Source: a virus
Direction: 5' to 3' (one strand)
Virus genome (UHGV): UHGV-0046267
Length of the DNA: 26,300 nt
This document shows positions 1,151 to 11,361 of this stretch, piece by piece. A model generated the notes under the pieces. That model ran no database searches. It was given only the letters and a program-made list of their open reading frames with translations, and was not told the origin of the DNA. The translations under genes and the position numbers were made by a program. Every line of letters starts with the position of its first letter. Within the stretch, counting starts at the first letter, position 1.

Positions 1151-1489
1151 TTAGCGGGGTGATTTTTGGTTTGTTTCGGTTGAAACCTGATCGCCCTCCG
1201 AATCGAAGAAGCCATCAAGAGAGAGAGGCGGAGCAATCTGCCCCGTCGCAGCATTAGTTTGATTAAACATCACCCAATCCGAATACTTCCGAAAACGAGG
1301 ATGATTCAAAATCAGGAGTAACGTTTCTCCAGGTATCATTCTTCCCAATATTTCATAATTTTTGAGATTGTATTGAGATACCCCTGTCACCTCTTCCATC
1401 TCTCTACGTGACAATCCCTCTGCCTCTCGAATCAGGCGAAGTTTTTCTCCAAGGCTTGATTTATGGATCATATGTGATCTAAACTCCAT
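1151..1489 (-). CDS. Immunity repressor, P2 C-like. An alternative ATG at 1471 (MIHKSS...) would give 106 aa.
   Basis: About 100 aa, divergent from cox and directly upstream of int. The WVMFNQT...GQIAP pattern resembles the P2 C family from memory. Confidence 0.7.
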   Translation of the reverse strand: MEFRSHMIHKSSLGEKLRLIREAEGLSRREMEEVTGVSQYNLKNYEILGRMIPGETLLLILNHPRFRKYSDWVMFNQTNAATGQIAPPLSLDGFFDSEGDQVSTETNQKSPR

Positions 1490-3509: not shown

Positions 3510-3751
3510 CCATTCTGGACTATATCGCCGCCAATCCGGGGTGTAGCGGTGGAGAAATCGCCGCAGCACTGAATACCCCAACCACAGCCATTAATGCGGA
3601 GTTACGCCGACTCTGGCGCAGCGGTTCAGTCATAAGAAAAGAGCGCAAAACAGGCGGTCGCTTTTCTTACCAGATAAACCCGATGCCGTTCGGGTGCGGC
3701 AATCCACTTACCAACATGTTTAACCAGCTACTGAAGGAAGCCAGAGCATGA
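3506..3751 (+). CDS. Small putative winged-helix DNA-binding protein.
   Basis: 81 aa, overlapping start/stop with neighbours. The N-terminal segment (DYIAANPGCSGGEIAAALNTPTTAINAELRRLWRSG) has an HTH/winged-helix look; family not identified. Confidence 0.45.
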   Translation: MTILDYIAANPGCSGGEIAAALNTPTTAINAELRRLWRSGSVIRKERKTGGRFSYQINPMPFGCGNPLTNMFNQLLKEARA

Positions 3752-4047
3752 GCGCCATCAACCACCAGGAATTACGCGAACTGGCGACTGACCTGCAACG
3801 AATGGCAACGCCTCAAAAATTACTGGCGTTTCGCGCAATGCTCTCGCCGTCTGCTGTGTTGGCGCTGCTGGATGAGCTGGAGCACGCCAGAACCACACCT
3901 CTCGCCATTCGCCTGACGCTCCGTCATGAAATCGAGGATTTCTGCGCGACGTTGGAGGCACCAGGCGAACCGGAAACGCCGGAAGCAATACAGAAAGAGC
4001 TGCTGCAACGCATTGACAAGGTTTTTGATTTTTTTCTGAACCACTAA
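3748..4047 (+). CDS. Hypothetical early protein.
   Basis: 99 aa ORF, ATGA-type overlap with the upstream gene. Confidence 0.5.
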   Translation: MSAINHQELRELATDLQRMATPQKLLAFRAMLSPSAVLALLDELEHARTTPLAIRLTLRHEIEDFCATLEAPGEPETPEAIQKELLQRIDKVFDFFLNH

Positions 4048-4169
4048 GAAACCAGAACATGCACACACAAAAAAACCGCTTGCCATGCCGCAATCAGTCA
4101 GGTTACATTTCCGCTGCACCTCACAAAACGGGTGCCGGGTTTCGCAGCCTGCTGACTACACAAGCGCAC

Positions 4170-4192
4170 AACCGCGCCAGCGGTTTTTTTGT
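4170..4192 (+). terminator. Candidate intrinsic terminator (stem ACCGC/GCGGT, then seven T).
   Basis: Hairpin and T-run read directly at 4170-4190 inside a roughly 320-bp stretch with no convincing ORF. The stem is short, so strength is uncertain. Confidence 0.35.
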
Positions 4193-4369
4193 GCGTACTG
4201 TATTGCCACGTTTTTTTCGCGTCAGAATTATGGCGGGGCGTACGGGGCCGACTTCGGTCGGGCCGGGTTCTTGTGTAGCCGGTACTGCGAACCTCGTACG
4301 TCTCGCCACCCACAGTTTCGCAGCTCTGGATGGTGAGTTTTCACAACTTACTACACAAGGGGCCACACC

Positions 4370-4600
4370 ATGGCAAACCGCAAACCACACCGCGCTATCG
4401 CGGAGCGTCGTCACATCCAGACTGAAATCAACCGCAGACTTTCCCGCGCATCACGCGTCGCGCAAATCATGCACATCAATATGTTGCATGAGCGCAGCCA
4501 CGCACTATCAAACATTTATTCCGCCTCTGTTTTCAGCTATCTGGCGGATGATCTGCACGAGCTTCAACAGCTCATCCAGCAGCAAAACAAACTCCATTAA
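4370..4600 (+). CDS. Hypothetical protein.
   Basis: 76 aa ORF upstream of gpA; coding status not certain. Confidence 0.4.
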   Translation: MANRKPHRAIAERRHIQTEINRRLSRASRVAQIMHINMLHERSHALSNIYSASVFSYLADDLHELQQLIQQQNKLH

Positions 4601-4672
4601 TTCCTGTTCCGGGCCTTTCCTGCACCTTGCGGCGGGAGGCCTTCGCACATCTGTAACAAGAGGATTGCCGCA

Positions 4673-5038
4673 ATGATTCTCGCCAACGACTTTCTTGAAT
4701 ACCTGCTCAACACAGAACGTGATCTTGCCGCTCGCGTGCGTGATCGTTATGACATGTACCTGAAATCCCTGCCTGTACCGCAGCTCGCTGACGGAAAAAT
4801 TGTTATTGATGGTCGCTACGTGATCGACAGCCATGAGGGAAATTACAGGCTTTACCGCATTGAAGGTGGCACCCCGTCCGTTATTGGCATTTACCAGCGC
4901 CCATCCTCTGCAATCGTCGATGTGATTGCCGACAGCATCCGCATCACACATCGCCATGCCGACACAGAAGACACCGTGCTGGAAATTCAGCGGCTGGCTA
5001 CAGTCTGCCGCGACACCCTGAATGGCATGACGAAGTAA
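4673..5038 (+). CDS. Hypothetical protein.
   Basis: 121 aa ORF with an AGAGGA RBS, immediately upstream of gpA. Confidence 0.5.
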   Translation: MILANDFLEYLLNTERDLAARVRDRYDMYLKSLPVPQLADGKIVIDGRYVIDSHEGNYRLYRIEGGTPSVIGIYQRPSSAIVDVIADSIRITHRHADTEDTVLEIQRLATVCRDTLNGMTK

Positions 5039-5044
5039 ATCACT

Positions 5045-7810
5045 ATGACGGCAGAGTACATCAGGGACTGGCAACAACCGCGCCACGCAGTGGGGCGTGA
5101 AGGAACGGGGATCCCCGCTCCTGAATCCGCGCTTTCCTCCTGGCTGGATGCCTACCGGGCAGAGAACGAGCGCCGCCAGGAAATGGCTGATGCGGCGTTC
5201 TCCGCCACGCCGCTGGGCAACCTGATTAATAAAAGCCTGGACGCACAGGAAAAACAGGACAAAACCATCACACTGGCAGGAGACGCCAGAAAACAGGCAC
5301 GCGGCGCGGTGGATGAAGCCATGGCCTCGCTGCGCCTGCTGCCGTCCTATCTGCGCGATCCGCTTATTCGCCACCTCTCCTTCCTGCGCAAAAAACAGGA
5401 AGCCGATCGCCGGAAAGGAAAAAAGAGCTGGCAGGCTGAACGCTACGCGTGCGGAACCCTGCGCAAAATATTCGAACGTCTGGACCGCACCGACCACCGC
5501 TGGCTGACACCGGGTTATCGCTCCCTTGCCGGACGCGAACGCCTGGACGATTTGCTTTACCTGCCGCAGCTCAACAAACACCAGATACAGACGCTGGCCA
5601 CCATGACGGCGGCGATGTTCAGCAGCACCTTCGAAAAACTCTGCGATGGCTTTGGCGCGACTGATGGCGAGCTGACCATGGATGTAACGCTGAAGGCGTA
5701 TCAGATGCTGGCCCGCATGGCGTTACACCTGCACGCCATGCCTCCGCATTATGACGTACTGACAACAGACAAAGACCGGAGGAACGAACCGGACACGGAG
5801 CTGCTGCCGGGCGCAATCCTTCGCCTGACCTGTGCGGAATGGTGGAAACGCAAACTGTGGCTGTTACGTTGCGAGTGGAGAGAAGAACAACTCCGCGCCG
5901 CCTGTCTGGTTTCCAGAAAAACATCACCCTATCTGAGCCAGGACGCGTTAAGCGAGTTTCGCGCACAGCGCGAGAAAACACGCGATTTCCTGAAAAGTTT
6001 CATGCTGGAAAACGAAGACGGGTTCACGATTGATCTCGAGACAGTGTATTACGCGGGAGTAAGTAACCCGGTTCACCGTAAGGCAGAAATGATGGCCACC
6101 ATGAAGGGGCTGGAACTTCTGGCCGAAGCCCGTGGCGACAAAGCGGTGTTTCTGACTGTCACCTGCCCGTCAAAATACCACGCCACAACAGAGAACGGTC
6201 ATCCGAATCCCAAATGGAACGGGGCCACCATGCGCGACTCCAGCGATTACCTGGTTAACACGTTTTTTGCAGCGGTCCGCAAGAAACTGAACCGCGATGG
6301 CCTGCGCTGGTATGGCATCCGCACGGTGGAGCCTCACCATGACGGCACCGTGCACTGGCATATGATGGTCTTTGCTCATCCGGAAGAAATCGACAGCATT
6401 GTGGCCATCACCCGCGATATTGCCATTCAGGAAGACCGCCACGAGCTGGGCGATGACATAACTCCGCGTTTTAAGGCGGAGTACGTAGACGGCTCAAAAG
6501 GCACACCAACCAGCTATATCGCGACCTACATCGGAAAAAACCTGGACAGCCGCGCCGTGGATGGCATCGACCCGAAAACGGGCAAGCCACGCGTTGACCA
6601 CGAAACCGGAAAATCAATGGCAGAGAGCGTGGAACGCGCCATCGGCTGGGCGCGCCTTCACCGGGTCCGCCAGTTCCAGTTCTTTGGTATCCCCTCCCGT
6701 CAGGTGTGGCGTGAACTGCGTCGCCTTGCCAGCCAGATGGCACGCAACCCGGAAGGCCCGCAACGGCTGAAGGATGACGCAATGGACTCGGTTCTTGCTG
6801 CCGCTGATGCCGGATGTTTTGCCACCTACATAGAGAAACAGGGCGGCGTACTTGTTCCACGCAAAGACTACCTGATTCGCACCGCCTACGACCTCGCAGA
6901 TGAGCTGAACGATTACGGCGAACAGAGCGTACAGATTTACGGGATCTGGTCACCACTCATCGGGGAATCCTCCCGTGTGTGCACGCACCCGGATAACTGG
7001 AAGCTGGTAAGACGTAAACCTGAAGCAGAAGACATCGCCCGCGAAAATGGTTTTGACCTTCAGGGCGGCCCTGCCGCCCCTTGGACTCGTGGCAATAACT
7101 GTCCCCGTGTACAGGAAACGGACAACAACGGGACAGAACAGCCGGAAGAACGGCCAGCACCGTGGCCGCAGCTCCCTGACGGCGTTGAAGTGAACGAATG
7201 GATGCGCTCACTGAAACGGCACGAACGCCGGGCGCTGATGCGTGCGCTTCGTGACAAACAGGCAAAAAACAGCAGTGATGAAATGCAGAGCTGGACACAG
7301 AGCCGCAAACAGCAGCGGCCTTTGCCTGATAACCACGAATTACTCGCTAAAGAATGGCGGGAGTCTGCTGAATCTCTCGGCCTGCATATCGGTGAACAAC
7401 AGATGCAGCACCTGTTACGGGGCGGCAGTCTGTACGTTGACGGCAGCATCATTGCACCGCAGAGATTTGAAATTGTACGCAAACCAGATACCCGACCGGA
7501 CAGCCGAATCACGCAGCTCTGGCAGCGCCTGAGCCGTAATCACGGCGTAAACAGCACGGAAATCCGCCATAACCCGGTTTCCAGCTATCTGAAACAGCTC
7601 GGGGCATCAGACCCAGAAGCCGCTGCACGCCTGGCATCCACAATTCAGCAGGACCAGAACACCATGAAAACTCCCGTTACCGTGCTTTCTGACATGCTGC
7701 GCGCCATCCGTGACGCAGAACACGCACAGAGAATCAATGAAACCACTGAACGCGCACGTCACAAGGCGAGTCTGTTGCAGGACAAAGGCAATAGCGAGAA
7801 GAAAAAATAA
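5045..7810 (+). CDS. Replication initiation endonuclease, P2 gpA family (rolling-circle HUH nickase).
   Basis: 921 aa. HUH-type motif VHWHMMVF and a tyrosine motif YIATYIGK are present. Position after the early operon matches P2 gene A. Confidence 0.9.
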   Translation: MTAEYIRDWQQPRHAVGREGTGIPAPESALSSWLDAYRAENERRQEMADAAFSATPLGNLINKSLDAQEKQDKTITLAGDARKQARGAVDEAMASLRLLPSYLRDPLIRHLSFLRKKQEADRRKGKKSWQAERYACGTLRKIFERLDRTDHRWLTPGYRSLAGRERLDDLLYLPQLNKHQIQTLATMTAAMFSSTFEKLCDGFGATDGELTMDVTLKAYQMLARMALHLHAMPPHYDVLTTDKDRRNEPDTELLPGAILRLTCAEWWKRKLWLLRCEWREEQLRAACLVSRKTSPYLSQDALSEFRAQREKTRDFLKSFMLENEDGFTIDLETVYYAGVSNPVHRKAEMMATMKGLELLAEARGDKAVFLTVTCPSKYHATTENGHPNPKWNGATMRDSSDYLVNTFFAAVRKKLNRDGLRWYGIRTVEPHHDGTVHWHMMVFAHPEEIDSIVAITRDIAIQEDRHELGDDITPRFKAEYVDGSKGTPTSYIATYIGKNLDSRAVDGIDPKTGKPRVDHETGKSMAESVERAIGWARLHRVRQFQFFGIPSRQVWRELRRLASQMARNPEGPQRLKDDAMDSVLAAADAGCFATYIEKQGGVLVPRKDYLIRTAYDLADELNDYGEQSVQIYGIWSPLIGESSRVCTHPDNWKLVRRKPEAEDIARENGFDLQGGPAAPWTRGNNCPRVQETDNNGTEQPEERPAPWPQLPDGVEVNEWMRSLKRHERRALMRALRDKQAKNSSDEMQSWTQSRKQQRPLPDNHELLAKEWRESAESLGLHIGEQQMQHLLRGGSLYVDGSIIAPQRFEIVRKPDTRPDSRITQLWQRLSRNHGVNSTEIRHNPVSSYLKQLGASDPEAAARLASTIQQDQNTMKTPVTVLSDMLRAIRDAEHAQRINETTERARHKASLLQDKGNSEKKK

Positions 7811-7990: not shown

Positions 7991-9112
7991 ATGGGCGACT
8001 TAGGTGGTATTCAGTCAGATTTAGCCCAACTAGTTAGACTGGTAATAGCTGAACAGTATGATGACGTTCGGTTATATGTCGCTCGCTTGGTGCGTAAATA
8101 TCGGGAAACTATGCCTGCTCTATCCGAGCAGCTTGATCTTTATCTACGAAATAAACCGCAAAAGCCTGCACAAAGCCTGCGTAAGGTTACCGCACCAAAA
8201 CAAGCGCTGCCTCAAACCATGCCTGTGGACGAGGAGTCAAGGCTTACCTTGCTTAAAGCACCAAATGAAAAGATTGTGAGCAAACCTCTACTGTCCAGTC
8301 AGATAGAAGACTCACTGGATCAAATTATTCTTGAGCGGAAGCACATCGATCGCCTCAAGGCTCTCGGCTTACAACCAACACGCTCTGCCATTTTTGTTGG
8401 CCCTCCGGGTGTAGGTAAAACACTTACGGCAAGCTGGTTAGCTCAGAAATTAGGGGTTCCTTTTTACGTTCTTGATTTAACGGCAGTAATGAGCAGCTAT
8501 CTGGGCAAAAGCGGAAATAACCTTCGGGCAGCTCTAGATTTTGCGAAGAAAGGGCCGTGCGTTCTTCTGTTAGATGAAATTGATTCAATCGCCAAAAAGA
8601 GAAGTGATGATTCTGATGTTGGAGAATTAAAAAGACTTGTTACCGTGATACTCCAGGAGGTTGACGAATGGCCGTCTTCTAGTTTGCTACTTGCTGCAAC
8701 TAACTTCGCTGAGTTGATTGATCCAGCACTATGGAGACGTTTTGATTTAGTGCTCAATTTTGAGAAGCCAGATAGCGAAAGTATTAAAGAAGCAATTAAA
8801 CGCTTTTCAGGTCCCGACTACGCGATTTTTGCACGTTGGATAGATCTACTGGCTATTATGTTCAAAAATGAATCTTTTAGTAATATTGAGCGTTCTATCA
8901 ACAAATTCCGACGTTCGGTCGCTTTAGGTATTTCCTCAGATGAAGAGTTGATTGGGTCGTTCATTAAAGATGGTTTATCAGAATTAGACAGGAATGAACG
9001 TAAAGAAATTGCAGTTACTCTAAAAAGAAATTCTAAATTATCCCAGCATGCCATATCAGACTTAACCGGAGTCAGTAGGGATACAATTAGAAAATACAGT
9101 CAAAAAATGTAA
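7991..9112 (+). CDS. AAA+ ATPase, first gene of the accessory cassette (IetA-like by architecture).
   Basis: 373 aa. Walker A GPPGVGKT and Walker B VLLLDEID present. AAGAGG RBS upstream. AT-rich relative to the phage backbone. C-terminus has an HTH-like stretch (LSQHAISDLTGVSRDTIRKY). Confidence 0.8.
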   Translation: MGDLGGIQSDLAQLVRLVIAEQYDDVRLYVARLVRKYRETMPALSEQLDLYLRNKPQKPAQSLRKVTAPKQALPQTMPVDEESRLTLLKAPNEKIVSKPLLSSQIEDSLDQIILERKHIDRLKALGLQPTRSAIFVGPPGVGKTLTASWLAQKLGVPFYVLDLTAVMSSYLGKSGNNLRAALDFAKKGPCVLLLDEIDSIAKKRSDDSDVGELKRLVTVILQEVDEWPSSSLLLAATNFAELIDPALWRRFDLVLNFEKPDSESIKEAIKRFSGPDYAIFARWIDLLAIMFKNESFSNIERSINKFRRSVALGISSDEELIGSFIKDGLSELDRNERKEIAVTLKRNSKLSQHAISDLTGVSRDTIRKYSQKM

Positions 9113-9135
9113 TACAGCATAGATAAGGAGTATGT

Positions 9136-11361
9136 ATGGCGAAAACTAATTTTCTGATTGGACGCGGCGAATTATTAACCAGCGATATTCCTGGTCCTAA
9201 AAGAGTGCCCGGAAAAGCTGAGGTTTATTCTCTTTACGAATCGAAACAACGTTTATTGCCGCAAATTGCATCTACTATAGAAAATTTTGATGATTTACCC
9301 AGTCAGGCATGTCCTTATGATTATGCTGTGGCTAAGTTGACGTTGAATCCGAGCTATATTGCACGCTCTTTTTTTCCTGCAAAAATGCTTAAGTCTACCG
9401 GGTTAACGTCTATTGGCAGCAGGACGGTAAAAATTACGCCTCAAAGCTGGAAGCGAAAAGTTACTGTGTCAGAAGTAACTACGACACAAATGTTTGTTGC
9501 TGGTAAAAGAGAATCCTTCAAAGAGTTACCTCATTGGGTGTCAGGACTCAAAGAGTTTTCTGACGAAGCGATTGATTTTGCACGCATAGAACGGTTCGAT
9601 GCCTATTTACCCGAAGAGCGTATTATTACCATTGGTGAGCAGGATTCTTCGTATTTTGAGGTTGGTGTTCATTTACTGCCAGATAATGAACAAGACTTGG
9701 TTCAGCAACAATTTGTTCAGTTTGCATCAAATTTGAACATCAAAGTACATACTTCATTAGCTTTTACCGCTGGTACATTATGGTTCGTGCCAATCCAGGC
9801 CGATAGAATTACTATTAGTAAGCTTGCGAAATTTACATTTGTACGAGTAATAAGACCGGTTCCAAGATTGCGTGGGATTAGACCAATACAAAGGAACTAC
9901 GGTCCTTTAGCTCAGTGTAAATTGCCTGCTGAGGGCCCCGTATCTTCAGAAATAAAAGTTGCGATTCTTGATGGTGGTTTACCATCAGAGCACGCTATAT
10001 CGCCATGGTTAAAATCCTATAGAGTTTTGGACGATCATGCAGAGGATGATCCAGACGGTTTAGAGCATGGTTTAGCTGTGTCTTCAGCCTTTTTATTTGG
10101 ACCAATAAGTAATAAATCGGAAGCGAAAAGACCATACTCTTATATTGATAACTTAAGAGTTTTGGACAACAAGACCTGCCAAGAAGATCCGCTGGAACTA
10201 TATCGAACTTTGGGCTTTATTGAAGAGGTATTGTTGTCTCGCCAGTATCAGTTTATCAATCTAAGTTTAGGTCCAGACCTACCAATTGAAGATACGGAAG
10301 TTCATGCATGGACTTCCGTTATTGATGATTTGTTAAGTGATGGTGAAACATTAATGACTGTTGCTGTTGGCAACAATGGAGAAATGGATCGCAAGTCTGG
10401 TAATGCAAGAATTCAAGTACCAGCCGATTGCGTTAATGCTCTTGCTGTTGGTGCTTGTGATACAGTTAATGATACGGAATGGAAACGAGCACCATATAGC
10501 GCCATTGGGCCAGGCAGAAGTCCTGGCGTGATGAAACCGGATTTAGTTGCGTTTGGTGGTGACACAGACGAGTACTTTCATGTTTTAGGTAAAGGTAAGA
10601 AGCCTGTAATCATACCCCAGCTAGGAACAAGCTTTGCCTCTCCTTACGCCTTACGAGCAGCTGTTGGTGTTCGGGCAATTTTAGGGAACGATTTGAGCCT
10701 ACTAGCAATCAAAGCTTTGTTAATTCATGCGTCAAAACAGCTTGATCATCCTTGTACAGAAGTTGGCTGGGGAAAACTGCCTGAAGACTTGAACGACATT
10801 ATAGTCAGCCCTGATGGTGTTGCCCGTATCGTCTACCAAGGTGAATTGAAACCAGGAAAATACTTACGCGCTTCTCTTCCAATACCTGAAGGTGGCTTGA
10901 AAGGTAGAATAAACTTAGCGGCAACTTTCTGTTATGCAACAACCACTGATCCACAAGACCCAGCTTCCTATACAAAAGCTGGTTTGGAAGTGACATTCCG
11001 GCCAAATGATTCAAAAATCAAAGACGGAAAACAAAATGCTGAAACCAAGGGATTCTTTGAACTGGCCAAATATTCAACTGAAAGTGAGCGACGTTCTGAC
11101 ATGGGCAAATGGGAGACCGTCTTACATAATTCGAAGAACATGCTAGGTTCAACTCTAAAAAATCCTGTATTTGACATTCATTATAACGCTCGTGAGGCCG
11201 GTGCAAGCATAGCCAGCCATAAGGCAGAAAAAATCAAGTATGCTCTTATAATTACCATTAAGGCATCAAAGCACCAAGACCTGTATAACGAAATTTTACG
11301 TACTTATAATCAGGTGCTCGTGCCAATTCAACCGCAAACATCAATTCCTATTCGTTCGTAA
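9136..11361 (+). CDS. Subtilisin-like serine peptidase, S8 family, second gene of the cassette (IetS-like by architecture).
   Basis: 741 aa, 23 bp downstream of the ATPase with an AAGGAG RBS. Catalytic triad motifs in canonical order: Asp (VAILDGG), His (HGLAVSS), Ser (GTSFASP). Extra N- and C-terminal regions of unknown function. Confidence 0.85.
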   Translation: MAKTNFLIGRGELLTSDIPGPKRVPGKAEVYSLYESKQRLLPQIASTIENFDDLPSQACPYDYAVAKLTLNPSYIARSFFPAKMLKSTGLTSIGSRTVKITPQSWKRKVTVSEVTTTQMFVAGKRESFKELPHWVSGLKEFSDEAIDFARIERFDAYLPEERIITIGEQDSSYFEVGVHLLPDNEQDLVQQQFVQFASNLNIKVHTSLAFTAGTLWFVPIQADRITISKLAKFTFVRVIRPVPRLRGIRPIQRNYGPLAQCKLPAEGPVSSEIKVAILDGGLPSEHAISPWLKSYRVLDDHAEDDPDGLEHGLAVSSAFLFGPISNKSEAKRPYSYIDNLRVLDNKTCQEDPLELYRTLGFIEEVLLSRQYQFINLSLGPDLPIEDTEVHAWTSVIDDLLSDGETLMTVAVGNNGEMDRKSGNARIQVPADCVNALAVGACDTVNDTEWKRAPYSAIGPGRSPGVMKPDLVAFGGDTDEYFHVLGKGKKPVIIPQLGTSFASPYALRAAVGVRAILGNDLSLLAIKALLIHASKQLDHPCTEVGWGKLPEDLNDIIVSPDGVARIVYQGELKPGKYLRASLPIPEGGLKGRINLAATFCYATTTDPQDPASYTKAGLEVTFRPNDSKIKDGKQNAETKGFFELAKYSTESERRSDMGKWETVLHNSKNMLGSTLKNPVFDIHYNAREAGASIASHKAEKIKYALIITIKASKHQDLYNEILRTYNQVLVPIQPQTSIPIRS

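Follow-up and report, generated by a model that had tools for sequence, protein, structure and literature searches.

The question raised by this locus is what occupies the stretch at positions 4048-4369, between two genes of the early operon of the phage genome UHGV-0046267, and what it might do there. The window, by which is meant the whole 26,300-nucleotide stretch of DNA that was analysed, belongs to a P2-like prophage of the P88 / Xuanwuvirus type in E. coli, with the gene order integrase, C-type repressor, Cox, small early ORFs, positions 4048-4369, a 76-aa ORF, a 121-aa ORF and gpA. As had been described in a first-pass annotation of the DNA, 4048-4369 is an inter-gene gap, exactly filling the space between the CDS at 3748-4047 and the CDS at 4370-4600. 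The accompanying statement that it has no convincing reading frame was wrong: an ATG-started ORF of 205 aa (4059-4676) crosses the entire stretch, is annotated as a CDS in NC_049391 and has a match to Pfam Phage_ASH. NC_049391 and PhiR44_2 carry the stretch with 100% identity, and phage P88 and Citrobacter phage Shae_phiSM with 87%. The surrounding 5 kb was matched in 1461 of 5426 complete E. coli genomes, and the cassette described below was found in 1087 of the 5426 (20%); in 398 genomes the identity reaches 99% or more. In E. coli records the cassette is left blank or is labelled 'ash family protein', 'transcriptional regulator' or 'hypothetical protein'; PGAP mostly gives the stretch no annotation, and in NC_049391 a spurious-looking long ORF is annotated in place of the real epsilon-like gene.

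The best explanation, to which a probability of about 0.85 is assigned, is that 4048-4369 is a P4/P1-type RNA immunity/attenuation cassette in the early operon of a P2-like prophage. Two catalogued phage RNAs most likely keep the anti-repressor and replication genes off, by analogy with known systems, although the net sign of regulation is uncertain here, the IsrK of Gifsy-1 being an activator and not a repressor. Membership in the RNA families, the structure, and the co-evolving complementarity to a ribosome-binding site are established by comparison of sequences. The features of the locus are as follows.

4059-4676, + strand: eta-like ORF, 205 aa, Pfam Phage_ASH; covers the promoter-like site, both RNAs and, in another frame, the epsilon-like gene
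4080-4109, + strand: promoter-like site TTGCCA-18-TACATT from a consensus scan, putative analogue of P4 PLE and Gifsy-1 PisrK
4116-4190, + strand: IsrK / seqA-type leader (Rfam RF01394), with two hairpins, a single-stranded linker and an intrinsic terminator
4141-4147, + strand: TTCGCAG within the isrK hairpin 2 loop; upstream target of C4 segment Y and complementary to 4285-4291
4156-4164, + strand: CTACACAAG in the linker of isrK, ahead of the terminator; upstream target of C4 loop X, corresponding to seqA, and exact complement of 4270-4278
4226-4313, + strand: C4 / CI-type antisense RNA, 88 nt (Rfam RF01695)
4270-4278, + strand: CTTGTGTAG, specificity segment X, which lies in the C4 hairpin 2 loop and corresponds to P4 seqB
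4285-4291, + strand: specificity segment Y, CTGCGAA, in the joint 3' of C4 hairpin 2, unpaired in the Rfam consensus
4317-4323, + strand: downstream target of segment Y, TTCGCAG, from covariation
4351-4362, + strand: downstream target of loop X, CTACACAAG (4351-4359), the seqC equivalent, overlapping the Shine-Dalgarno sequence AAGGGG (4357-4362) of ATG 4370
4370-4600, + strand: gene for a 76-aa epsilon-like 'derepression protein', first after the RNA cassette and presumably regulated by it
4673-5038, + strand: ORF121, a conserved small gene (PHROG 3237) with the epsilon-like gene to its 5' side and gpA to its 3' side
5045-7810, + strand: gpA replication endonuclease (Pfam Phage_GPA), downstream in the same transcription unit

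The first-pass annotation had suggested a structured small RNA and had proposed that the region be folded and searched against Rfam. This yielded two curated regulatory-RNA families, isrK and C4, with the C4 structure recovered as the minimum free energy (MFE) fold; in a scan of the whole window these were exactly the two Rfam matches, both within 4048-4369 and both on the + strand. ARAGORN found neither tRNA nor tmRNA in the window. Both RNAs were also matched in nine of nine relatives scanned (P88-like and lambdoid) and in P4. The isrK match (4116-4190) is full-length and scores 64.1 bits against a gathering threshold of 50 (E 8.6e-12), although isrK alone folds no better than its shuffles (z = -1.16). 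The terminator that had been noticed at 4170-4190 is there, as the hairpin AACCGC-GCCA-GCGGTT (4170-4185) with a T-run (4184-4190), and it closes isrK. Hfq binding and activity in trans of the short IsrK RNA are known only for Gifsy-1. The promoter-like site ends 7 nt 5' of the isrK start and matches the consensus at 9 of 12 positions; such sites are as numerous in the region as shuffling predicts. Across six relatives the -10 hexamer TACATT is invariant, as is TTGCC of the -35 hexamer, its final A being kept in five of the six, and the P4 promoter (TTGCCT-N17-TATAGT) is placed alike relative to the P4 isrK match. No LexA box was seen by eye at the putative internal promoter, a CTGT in 4198-4213 having no matching ACAG. 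Chance probably accounts for a second promoter-like site (4203-4231): the five relatives have TCGCCA where its -35 hexamer lies, and the conserved 5' flank of C4 supplies its -10.

The C4 match (4226-4313) scores 83.2 bits against a gathering threshold of 45 (E 3e-15) and covers model positions 1-87 of 87. It comprises a 17-bp outer stem (4231-4247 with 4292-4308), a TTCG hairpin (4248-4261) and a hairpin 2 (4262-4283) whose loop has 12 nt. The TTCG-capped stem reported earlier, GCCGAC-TTCG-GTCGG, is present at 4247-4261; the pair of CGTACG palindromes said to bracket it is also real, forming opposite strands of the 17-bp stem that encloses the TTCG hairpin, but its two copies are at 4239-4244 and 4295-4300 instead of the stated 4248-4253 and 4297-4302. 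The C4 segment folds to -47.7 kcal/mol (z = -4.46; none of 200 shuffles was as stable), and the MFE fold is the Rfam structure. Among the matches listed, which gave 82 unique homologues, each pair of C4 hairpin 1 is kept in 99-100% and takes 3-5 pair types, and the outer stem is 82% paired, versus 40-59% when its register is slid. RNAs of the C4 family are cut by RNase P from a longer transcript to give a stable RNA of about 70-80 nt; the only sign of such maturation visible here is a tRNA-acceptor-like stem followed by GCCACCCA, which ARAGORN does not call as a tRNA.

The two specificity segments of C4, X and Y, each have one exact complement inside isrK and another just downstream of C4, and the downstream target of X reaches into the Shine-Dalgarno sequence AAGGGG, 7 nt 5' of ATG 4370. 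Across six P88-like loci (approximately 89% identity) variability is highest in the columns of X and Y: five X types and five Y types occur there, in six different combinations, one per locus. An examination of related prophages for compensatory changes, as had been proposed, found them both in the stems and in the pairings of antisense segment with target. For the seqA:C4 and C4:seqC pairings in the six relatives, 96 of 96 cells contain standard pairs and 9 of 16 pairs are compensatory; the covariation score was matched by none of 500 shuffles, and slid registers were 22-53% paired. Segment Y and its downstream site (4317-4323) form seven pairs that are 100% paired, four of them with compensatory changes, and RNAalifold recovers the C4:seqC helices unaided. 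All of the intermolecular compensatory changes are strictly Watson-Crick, without G-U intermediates. In segment-level matrices, cognate duplexes have energies of about -29 to -30 kcal/mol versus about -17 for non-cognate ones; values from RNAduplex of C4 against its flanks were inflated and uninformative. The MFE fold of 4116-4400 predicts that, in a read-through transcript, seqA pairs in cis with X/Y of C4.

A wider sample was taken from IMG/VR viral contigs that contain the C4 core motif (CTTCGG followed by N4), at least 120 loci, whereas an informal control motif with N5 in place of N4 matched 32 viral-contig loci, approximately the number expected by chance on a rough estimate. At least 66 unique X/Y combinations were present in these contigs, and their cognate complements average 7-8 nt at fixed offsets, versus approximately 5.1 nt for non-cognate ones. 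Among the matches listed, the upstream targets are mostly at -70 or -99 for X and at -85 or -115 for Y, with other offsets in other classes, and downstream the targets of X are at about +31 to +38 and those of Y at about +1 to +6. X is hypervariable, with at least 54 types when defined as a 10-nt core and at least 52 as 12-nt loops. The P2-like class contains, in approximately 29 loci among the matches listed, 16 combinations of 11 X types and 7 Y types, X and Y being reassorted among phages; among the matches listed, none of the X types was shared between the P2-like, P4-like and Rha classes, which speaks against cross-talk between helper and satellite.

The genes that follow the RNAs suggest what may be regulated. 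The protein encoded at 4370-4600 matches the Pfam family Derepression protein (PF25738) with 32.5 bits against a cutoff of 27, and aligns by BLASTP with the epsilon protein of P4 at 29% identity over 66 aa (E 4e-9), with 17 invariant columns in common; P4 epsilon itself, the prototype of the family, scores 170 bits. The assignment as epsilon-like thus has this 29% identity and 32.5-bit score as its basis. In all, 191 homologues of the epsilon-like protein were found, and a scan of the genome collection with their alignment gave three loci only. P4 epsilon inactivates the P2 C-type repressor, and the prophage repressor in the window (1151-1489) is of the P2 C type, with 35-38% identity to C of P2 and of Wphi. 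ORF121 belongs to PHROG 3237 (E 2e-54), with a weak DUF5405 / P2 Orf83-like match (DUF5405 E 0.076), and is present in most loci of the P2-like class among the matches listed; compared with P4 ORF151 it has no similarity (E 0.17). The gpA product matches Pfam Phage_GPA with E 2.5e-131. The order C4, epsilon-like gene, gpA (the last at approximately +820 nt from C4) recurs in approximately 29 independent viral contigs among the matches listed, in some of which gpA is only 33-53% identical. The region 4300-4460 is C-rich and G-poor (C 0.33-0.39, G 0.19-0.21).

The reading frame that crosses the cassette bears directly on whether this is an RNA locus or an ordinary protein gene, a 205-aa 'Ash family' protein or 'transcriptional regulator' in whose DNA the RNA-like features are incidental. 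The ORF begins 21 nt 5' of the -35 hexamer and ends in ATGA, overlapping the start of the ORF at 4673. In favour of a protein gene are its annotation in NC_049391, a Phage_ASH (PF10554) match of 26.5 bits, 0.5 bit over the cutoff of 26 (aa 16-109, nt 4104-4385), matches to PHROG 'transcriptional regulator' families (E 1e-15), and a frame that is actively kept free of stops in relatives: among the matches listed, 94% of 104 non-identical loci have it uninterrupted through C4, versus 37-43% for the other two frames, and an in-frame stop occurs in the hypervariable loop of 1 of 51 variants, versus 18 and 13 in the other frames. Against it, the variable columns of 4104-4369 are spread over codon positions as 22/22/24, without third-position excess, whereas the neighbouring real gene, the epsilon-like one, has 19/19/37; and in an E. 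albertii relative a compensated +1/-1 frameshift over 170 nt recodes approximately 57 residues while the nucleotides are kept. Because of the codon-position spread and this tolerated frameshift, the peptide is not regarded as conserved, and no purifying selection on the amino acids of the Phage_ASH frame was found. The ORF also overlaps, in another frame, the whole of the conserved epsilon-like gene, is mostly passed over by PGAP, and leaves the three-way nucleotide covariation unexplained. Phage_ASH, moreover, coincides with isrK+C4 DNA in every genome examined: in the window, in the old P4 'cI' ORF, in the P4 eta-frame ORF, and in N-terminal extensions of lambdoid Rha anti-repressors. BLASTP of the 205-aa ORF against the P4 'cI' ORF found no similarity (E 1.0), though Phage_ASH is common to both. 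A protein gene as the whole account is therefore considered highly improbable. A conserved coding frame in relatives had been named beforehand as evidence against an RNA; the frame is indeed kept open, but this does not refute the RNA reading, because the frame has no codon-position bias and the eta/kil frame of P4 is a translated part of the switch. For the P4 immunity region, PMC10111431, citing Forti 1999, describes nested eta and kil as translated through that region, with eta translation preventing termination. Since an open frame fits both this translation and the orf45 of Gifsy-1, the 205-aa ORF would be part of the switch and not its rival.

Three further explanations were weighed. A plain intrinsic terminator or attenuator, dividing early accessory from replication genes without any antisense RNA, would account for the canonical hairpin and T-run at 4170-4190, and the early operons of P2 and 186 also contain terminators; but these have no C4 or isrK match, and the 88-nt C4 structure, its Rfam score and the paired hypervariable sites would be unaccounted for, so that very little credence is given to this reading. 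Inverted repeats acting at the level of DNA, as protein-binding or recombination sites, would fit the strictly Watson-Crick nature of the intermolecular changes and the reassortment of X and Y types among phages; however, the G-U pairs of the internal C4 stems are valid solely in + strand RNA, the - strand folds much worse (z = -1.9), and the homologous elements of P4, P1 and Gifsy-1 act as RNAs, which makes repeats of this kind scarcely credible. The third is a cis-acting leader switch like that of Gifsy-1 IsrK, in which the C4-like part serves chiefly as the leader of an mRNA whose orf45-like ORF starts at ATG 4230, the read-through transcript is locked in a translationally silent fold, and no processed C4 acting in trans is needed. 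This mechanism has been shown experimentally for the homologous isrK-orf45-anrP locus; the conserved AUG at the 5' end of C4 (4230-4232) is in the eta frame and matches the position of the first orf45 AUG, and the predicted MFE fold of 4116-4400 forms the seqA:C4 helix in cis. The C4 segments, however, co-vary perfectly with the downstream sites next to the Shine-Dalgarno sequence, which the P4/P1 antisense model needs and a cis switch does not, and P4 CI and P1 C4, which share the Rfam model, are processed trans-acting repressors (PMC10111431; for P1, the general literature). The cis switch is considered unlikely, though by no means negligible, and it and the antisense model are not mutually exclusive.

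For the P4/P1-type RNA cassette, the following course of events is proposed. By analogy with P4, P1 and Gifsy-1, the internal promoter would be constitutive in the lysogen. Most transcripts would stop at the IsrK terminator, and read-through RNA would be processed, with RNase P cutting at its 5' end, to leave a stable C4-like RNA, which may pair with the downstream sites and thereby keep ribosomes from translating the epsilon-like anti-repressor. Transcription of the C-rich RNA, left untranslated, would then terminate, probably via Rho, ahead of ORF121 and gpA, a step suggested by analogy and by the C-rich, G-poor composition. Since IsrK holds copies of both targets, these could act as decoys that titrate C4 or remodel the read-through mRNA, making IsrK a candidate induction switch. 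Pe early transcripts would carry the eta-like ORF, which starts at 4059, 5' of the internal promoter, and ribosomes crossing the cassette may make such transcripts insensitive to the RNA immunity; the frame is proposed to be open without amino-acid conservation because its translation in Pe transcripts would bypass that immunity. The epsilon-like protein, once made, most likely inactivates a P2 C-type repressor, for example the prophage's own. The earlier suggestion of a regulatory RNA or attenuator over the early genes, with gpA as the gene controlled, is thus upheld in its main part by isrK, C4, the P4 order and the covariation, and is modified in that there are two RNAs where one had been proposed, the direct target is presumably the ribosome-binding site of the epsilon-like gene 4370-4600, and gpA would be affected through polarity.

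Cassettes of this kind are already known as curated, experimentally founded families (P1/P7 c4, P4 CI/seqA, Gifsy-1 IsrK). The locus is a further instance of the P1, P7 and P4 mechanism worked out decades ago and therefore opens no new question; no description was found in the literature of such a cassette in P2-like helper-type phages with an epsilon homologue at the kil position, and this occurrence modestly extends what is known and does not constitute a new type of system. At somewhat less than even odds, it is tentatively proposed that there is a clade of P2-like helper-type phages with the RNA-immunity-plus-epsilon cassette of satellite P4, an epsilon homologue having moved to the kil position, where antisense RNA would control it directly, as a second, RNA-encoded layer of immunity and induction atop C/Cox. 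If so, the ratio of IsrK to C4 would decide whether an epsilon-type anti-repressor is made; the anti-repressor could act on the phage's own C repressor or on that of resident heteroimmune P2-like prophages; the reassorting X/Y variants would define RNA immunity groups; and the eta frame, obligatorily open, would let translation carry Pe transcripts past the RNA immunity. The practical value lies mostly in annotation, a common cassette being usually unannotated or mis-annotated in E. coli, with Pfam Phage_ASH tracking the RNA locus and not epsilon. Once recognised, the cassette also accounts for the way in which a very common P2-like prophage may control expression of its anti-repressor and replication genes independently of LexA, and a module common to helper-type phages and P4 satellites links the two.

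The locus was compared with known systems. Neither C4 nor isrK was found in the early regions of P2 and 186, even at E values up to 1, and the cassette is therefore not a general feature of the P2 family. The Tum system of 186 is similar in that a P2-like phage uses a small anti-repressor outside the C/Cox switch as a route to induction, but Tum is controlled by LexA at the DNA level, lies after gene A, and has no RNA cassette.

The immI region of P1 and P7 (c4, icd, ant) shares Rfam family RF01695 with this locus. As is seen or proposed for the present locus, the antisense RNA there is excised from its target operon's leader; recognition segments a' and b' of c4 have complementary copies upstream (a1, b1) and, at the ribosome-binding site of the first ORF, downstream (a2, b2); the product under control is an anti-repressor; and heteroimmunity results from variants in specificity. 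The downstream genes differ, being Icd/Ant in P1/P7 (as known from the literature) and an unrelated epsilon-like gene here, and an isrK-type terminated leader is present here.

In the isrK-orf45(STnc1160)-anrP locus of Gifsy-1, as here, isrK has its own promoter (a putative one here) and a leaky terminator and is followed by a C4/CI-like RNA with a conserved 5' AUG; a predicted cis helix joins the middle of IsrK to part of C4 (the silent 'structure A'), an anti-repressor gene lies downstream, and the overlapping ORF is conserved in nucleotides but not in amino acids. IsrK has been described as a structural homologue of P4 seqA, with the CI-like STnc1160 downstream of it (Hershko-Shalev 2016; PMC4825925). 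Gifsy-1 differs in being lambdoid, with an anti-repressor protein other than the epsilon-like one (in four lambdoid loci scanned, the gene after C4 carries a Phage_pRha domain), in the shortness of orf45, whereas the frame here runs 149 codons past ATG 4230, and in the effect shown for IsrK, which is activation in trans of the downstream anti-repressor and not repression.

In satellite phage P4, the Rfam models match the seqA leader (isrK) and the CI immunity RNA (C4) in the same order, followed by epsilon; the C4 and isrK models are known to detect relatives of CI and seqA, CI lying inside the eta gene (PMC10111431). The differences are that the element here, with integrase, C, Cox and gpA, is a complete P2-like phage whereas P4 is a satellite; that the Shine-Dalgarno sequence covered here is that of the epsilon-like gene, in a frame other than eta, whereas in P4 it is that of kil; that isrK and C4 are 35 nt apart here versus 107 nt, and C4 and the epsilon start 56 nt versus 245 nt; and that the replication protein is gpA here and the alpha primase in P4, the X and Y sequences also being different. 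In a survey of P4-like satellites, delta was the only P4-specific gene with clear homologues in P2-like phages. The two loci are alike in having the two Rfam matches in the same order on the same strand, a promoter or promoter-like site placed alike, and targets of both X and Y upstream and downstream at comparable offsets. In each, the downstream X target overlaps the Shine-Dalgarno sequence of the first translated gene (in P4, GTGAGAA ... TTCACAGGAGG-N7-ATG at the kil start, at the same offset from CI), and the P4 seqA sequence UUCACAGG sits at the same isrK model position as the upstream X target. Finally, in both the cassette lies inside an open Phage_ASH/eta frame that starts 5' of the promoter or, here, of the promoter-like site, the eta-frame ORF of P4 having the same Phage_ASH domain over its isrK+C4 DNA, with an epsilon homologue and a replication gene downstream.

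Citrobacter phage Shae_phiSM has a repressor that is 100% identical to the immunity repressor encoded on the minus strand of the window (1151-1489). The RNA cassette, comprising the isrK/seqA leader and the C4/CI antisense RNA, is identical to those of P88_4B11 and PhiR44_2, while that of Shae_phiSM matches it at only 87%. Thus, the protein and RNA immunity modules have been reassorted with respect to each other. The X and Y specificity segments of C4 have also been reassorted among phages: the P2-like class shows at least 16 combinations, drawn from at least 11 X types and at least 7 Y types. In an alignment of six P88-like loci (columns 94-118, 224-245 and 271-313), every compensatory change that links C4 with either of its two target pairs is strictly Watson-Crick, with 0 G-U intermediates. 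These patterns suggest that a switch in specificity replaces all three copies through recombination or conversion and does not proceed by mutations one at a time. A second promoter-like match (window 4203-4231, TTGCCA-17-AATTAT), located just upstream of and extending into the 5' end of C4, is probably due to chance, because its -35 element is TCGCCA in five relatives.

The translated region of both RNAs, in the eta frame (window 4059-4676; satellite phage P4 8168-8812, minus strand), matches PF10554 (Phage_ASH). No PF10554 match was found in the P4 epsilon protein, which belongs to PF25738 (170 bits). The "epsilon (Ash)" profile of a large survey of P4-like satellites is PF10554 (PMC8628076); since this family matches the eta frame of the RNA region and not P4 epsilon, the "epsilon (Ash)" marker detects the immunity-RNA locus. 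Matches to PF10554 are also present in P2-like phages and in lambdoid Rha anti-repressor ORFs. In four lambdoid phages of the Stx-converting and ST64B-like kinds (L041-L044, approximately 1140-2300), the isrK and C4 DNA lies in frame within ORFs of 287 to 385 amino acids that fill the interval between the cII stop and the following gene and are labelled "antirepressor", "peptidase" or "Rha"; the true Rha domain begins only 3' of the RNA cassette. A Firmicute-labelled contig (NZ_JBQPOM010000071.1, "Vagococcus sp. WN89Y") carries this same enterobacterial P2-like prophage segment at 88% identity, with isrK, C4, the epsilon-like gene and gpA; its label is likely to reflect assembly contamination or mislabelling.

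Among the matches listed, the hypervariable loop of C4 (window 4267-4278 and its homologues in viral contigs L045-L164) contains an eta-frame stop codon in 1 of 51 variants, compared with 18 and 13 of the 51 in the other two frames. Third-position bias is absent from the eta frame, and selection seems to maintain its translatability, not a peptide. The long overlapping ORF is labelled "transcriptional regulator" in the RefSeq phage record NC_049391 (3012-3629, equivalent to window 4059-4676), where the epsilon-like gene (window 4370-4600), although conserved, is not annotated; PGAP records of E. coli make the reverse choice. The "repressor/regulator" label seems to be a legacy of the old annotation of P4 cI as a protein.

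Downstream of the cassette lies the replication gene:

5045-7810, gpA, 921 amino acids

Its Phage_GPA domain is limited to residues 179-503, and no strong family match was found for the C-terminal ~400 residues; the gpA of P2, encoded by a gene of 2286 nucleotides, is far shorter. Immediately 3' of gpA are genes for an ATPase of the AAA family and a peptidase of the S8 family (window 7991-9112 onward; locus L001, with the same coordinates, 7991-11000), which may be anti-phage cargo, because they occupy the position of the old/tin lysogenic-conversion genes of P2.
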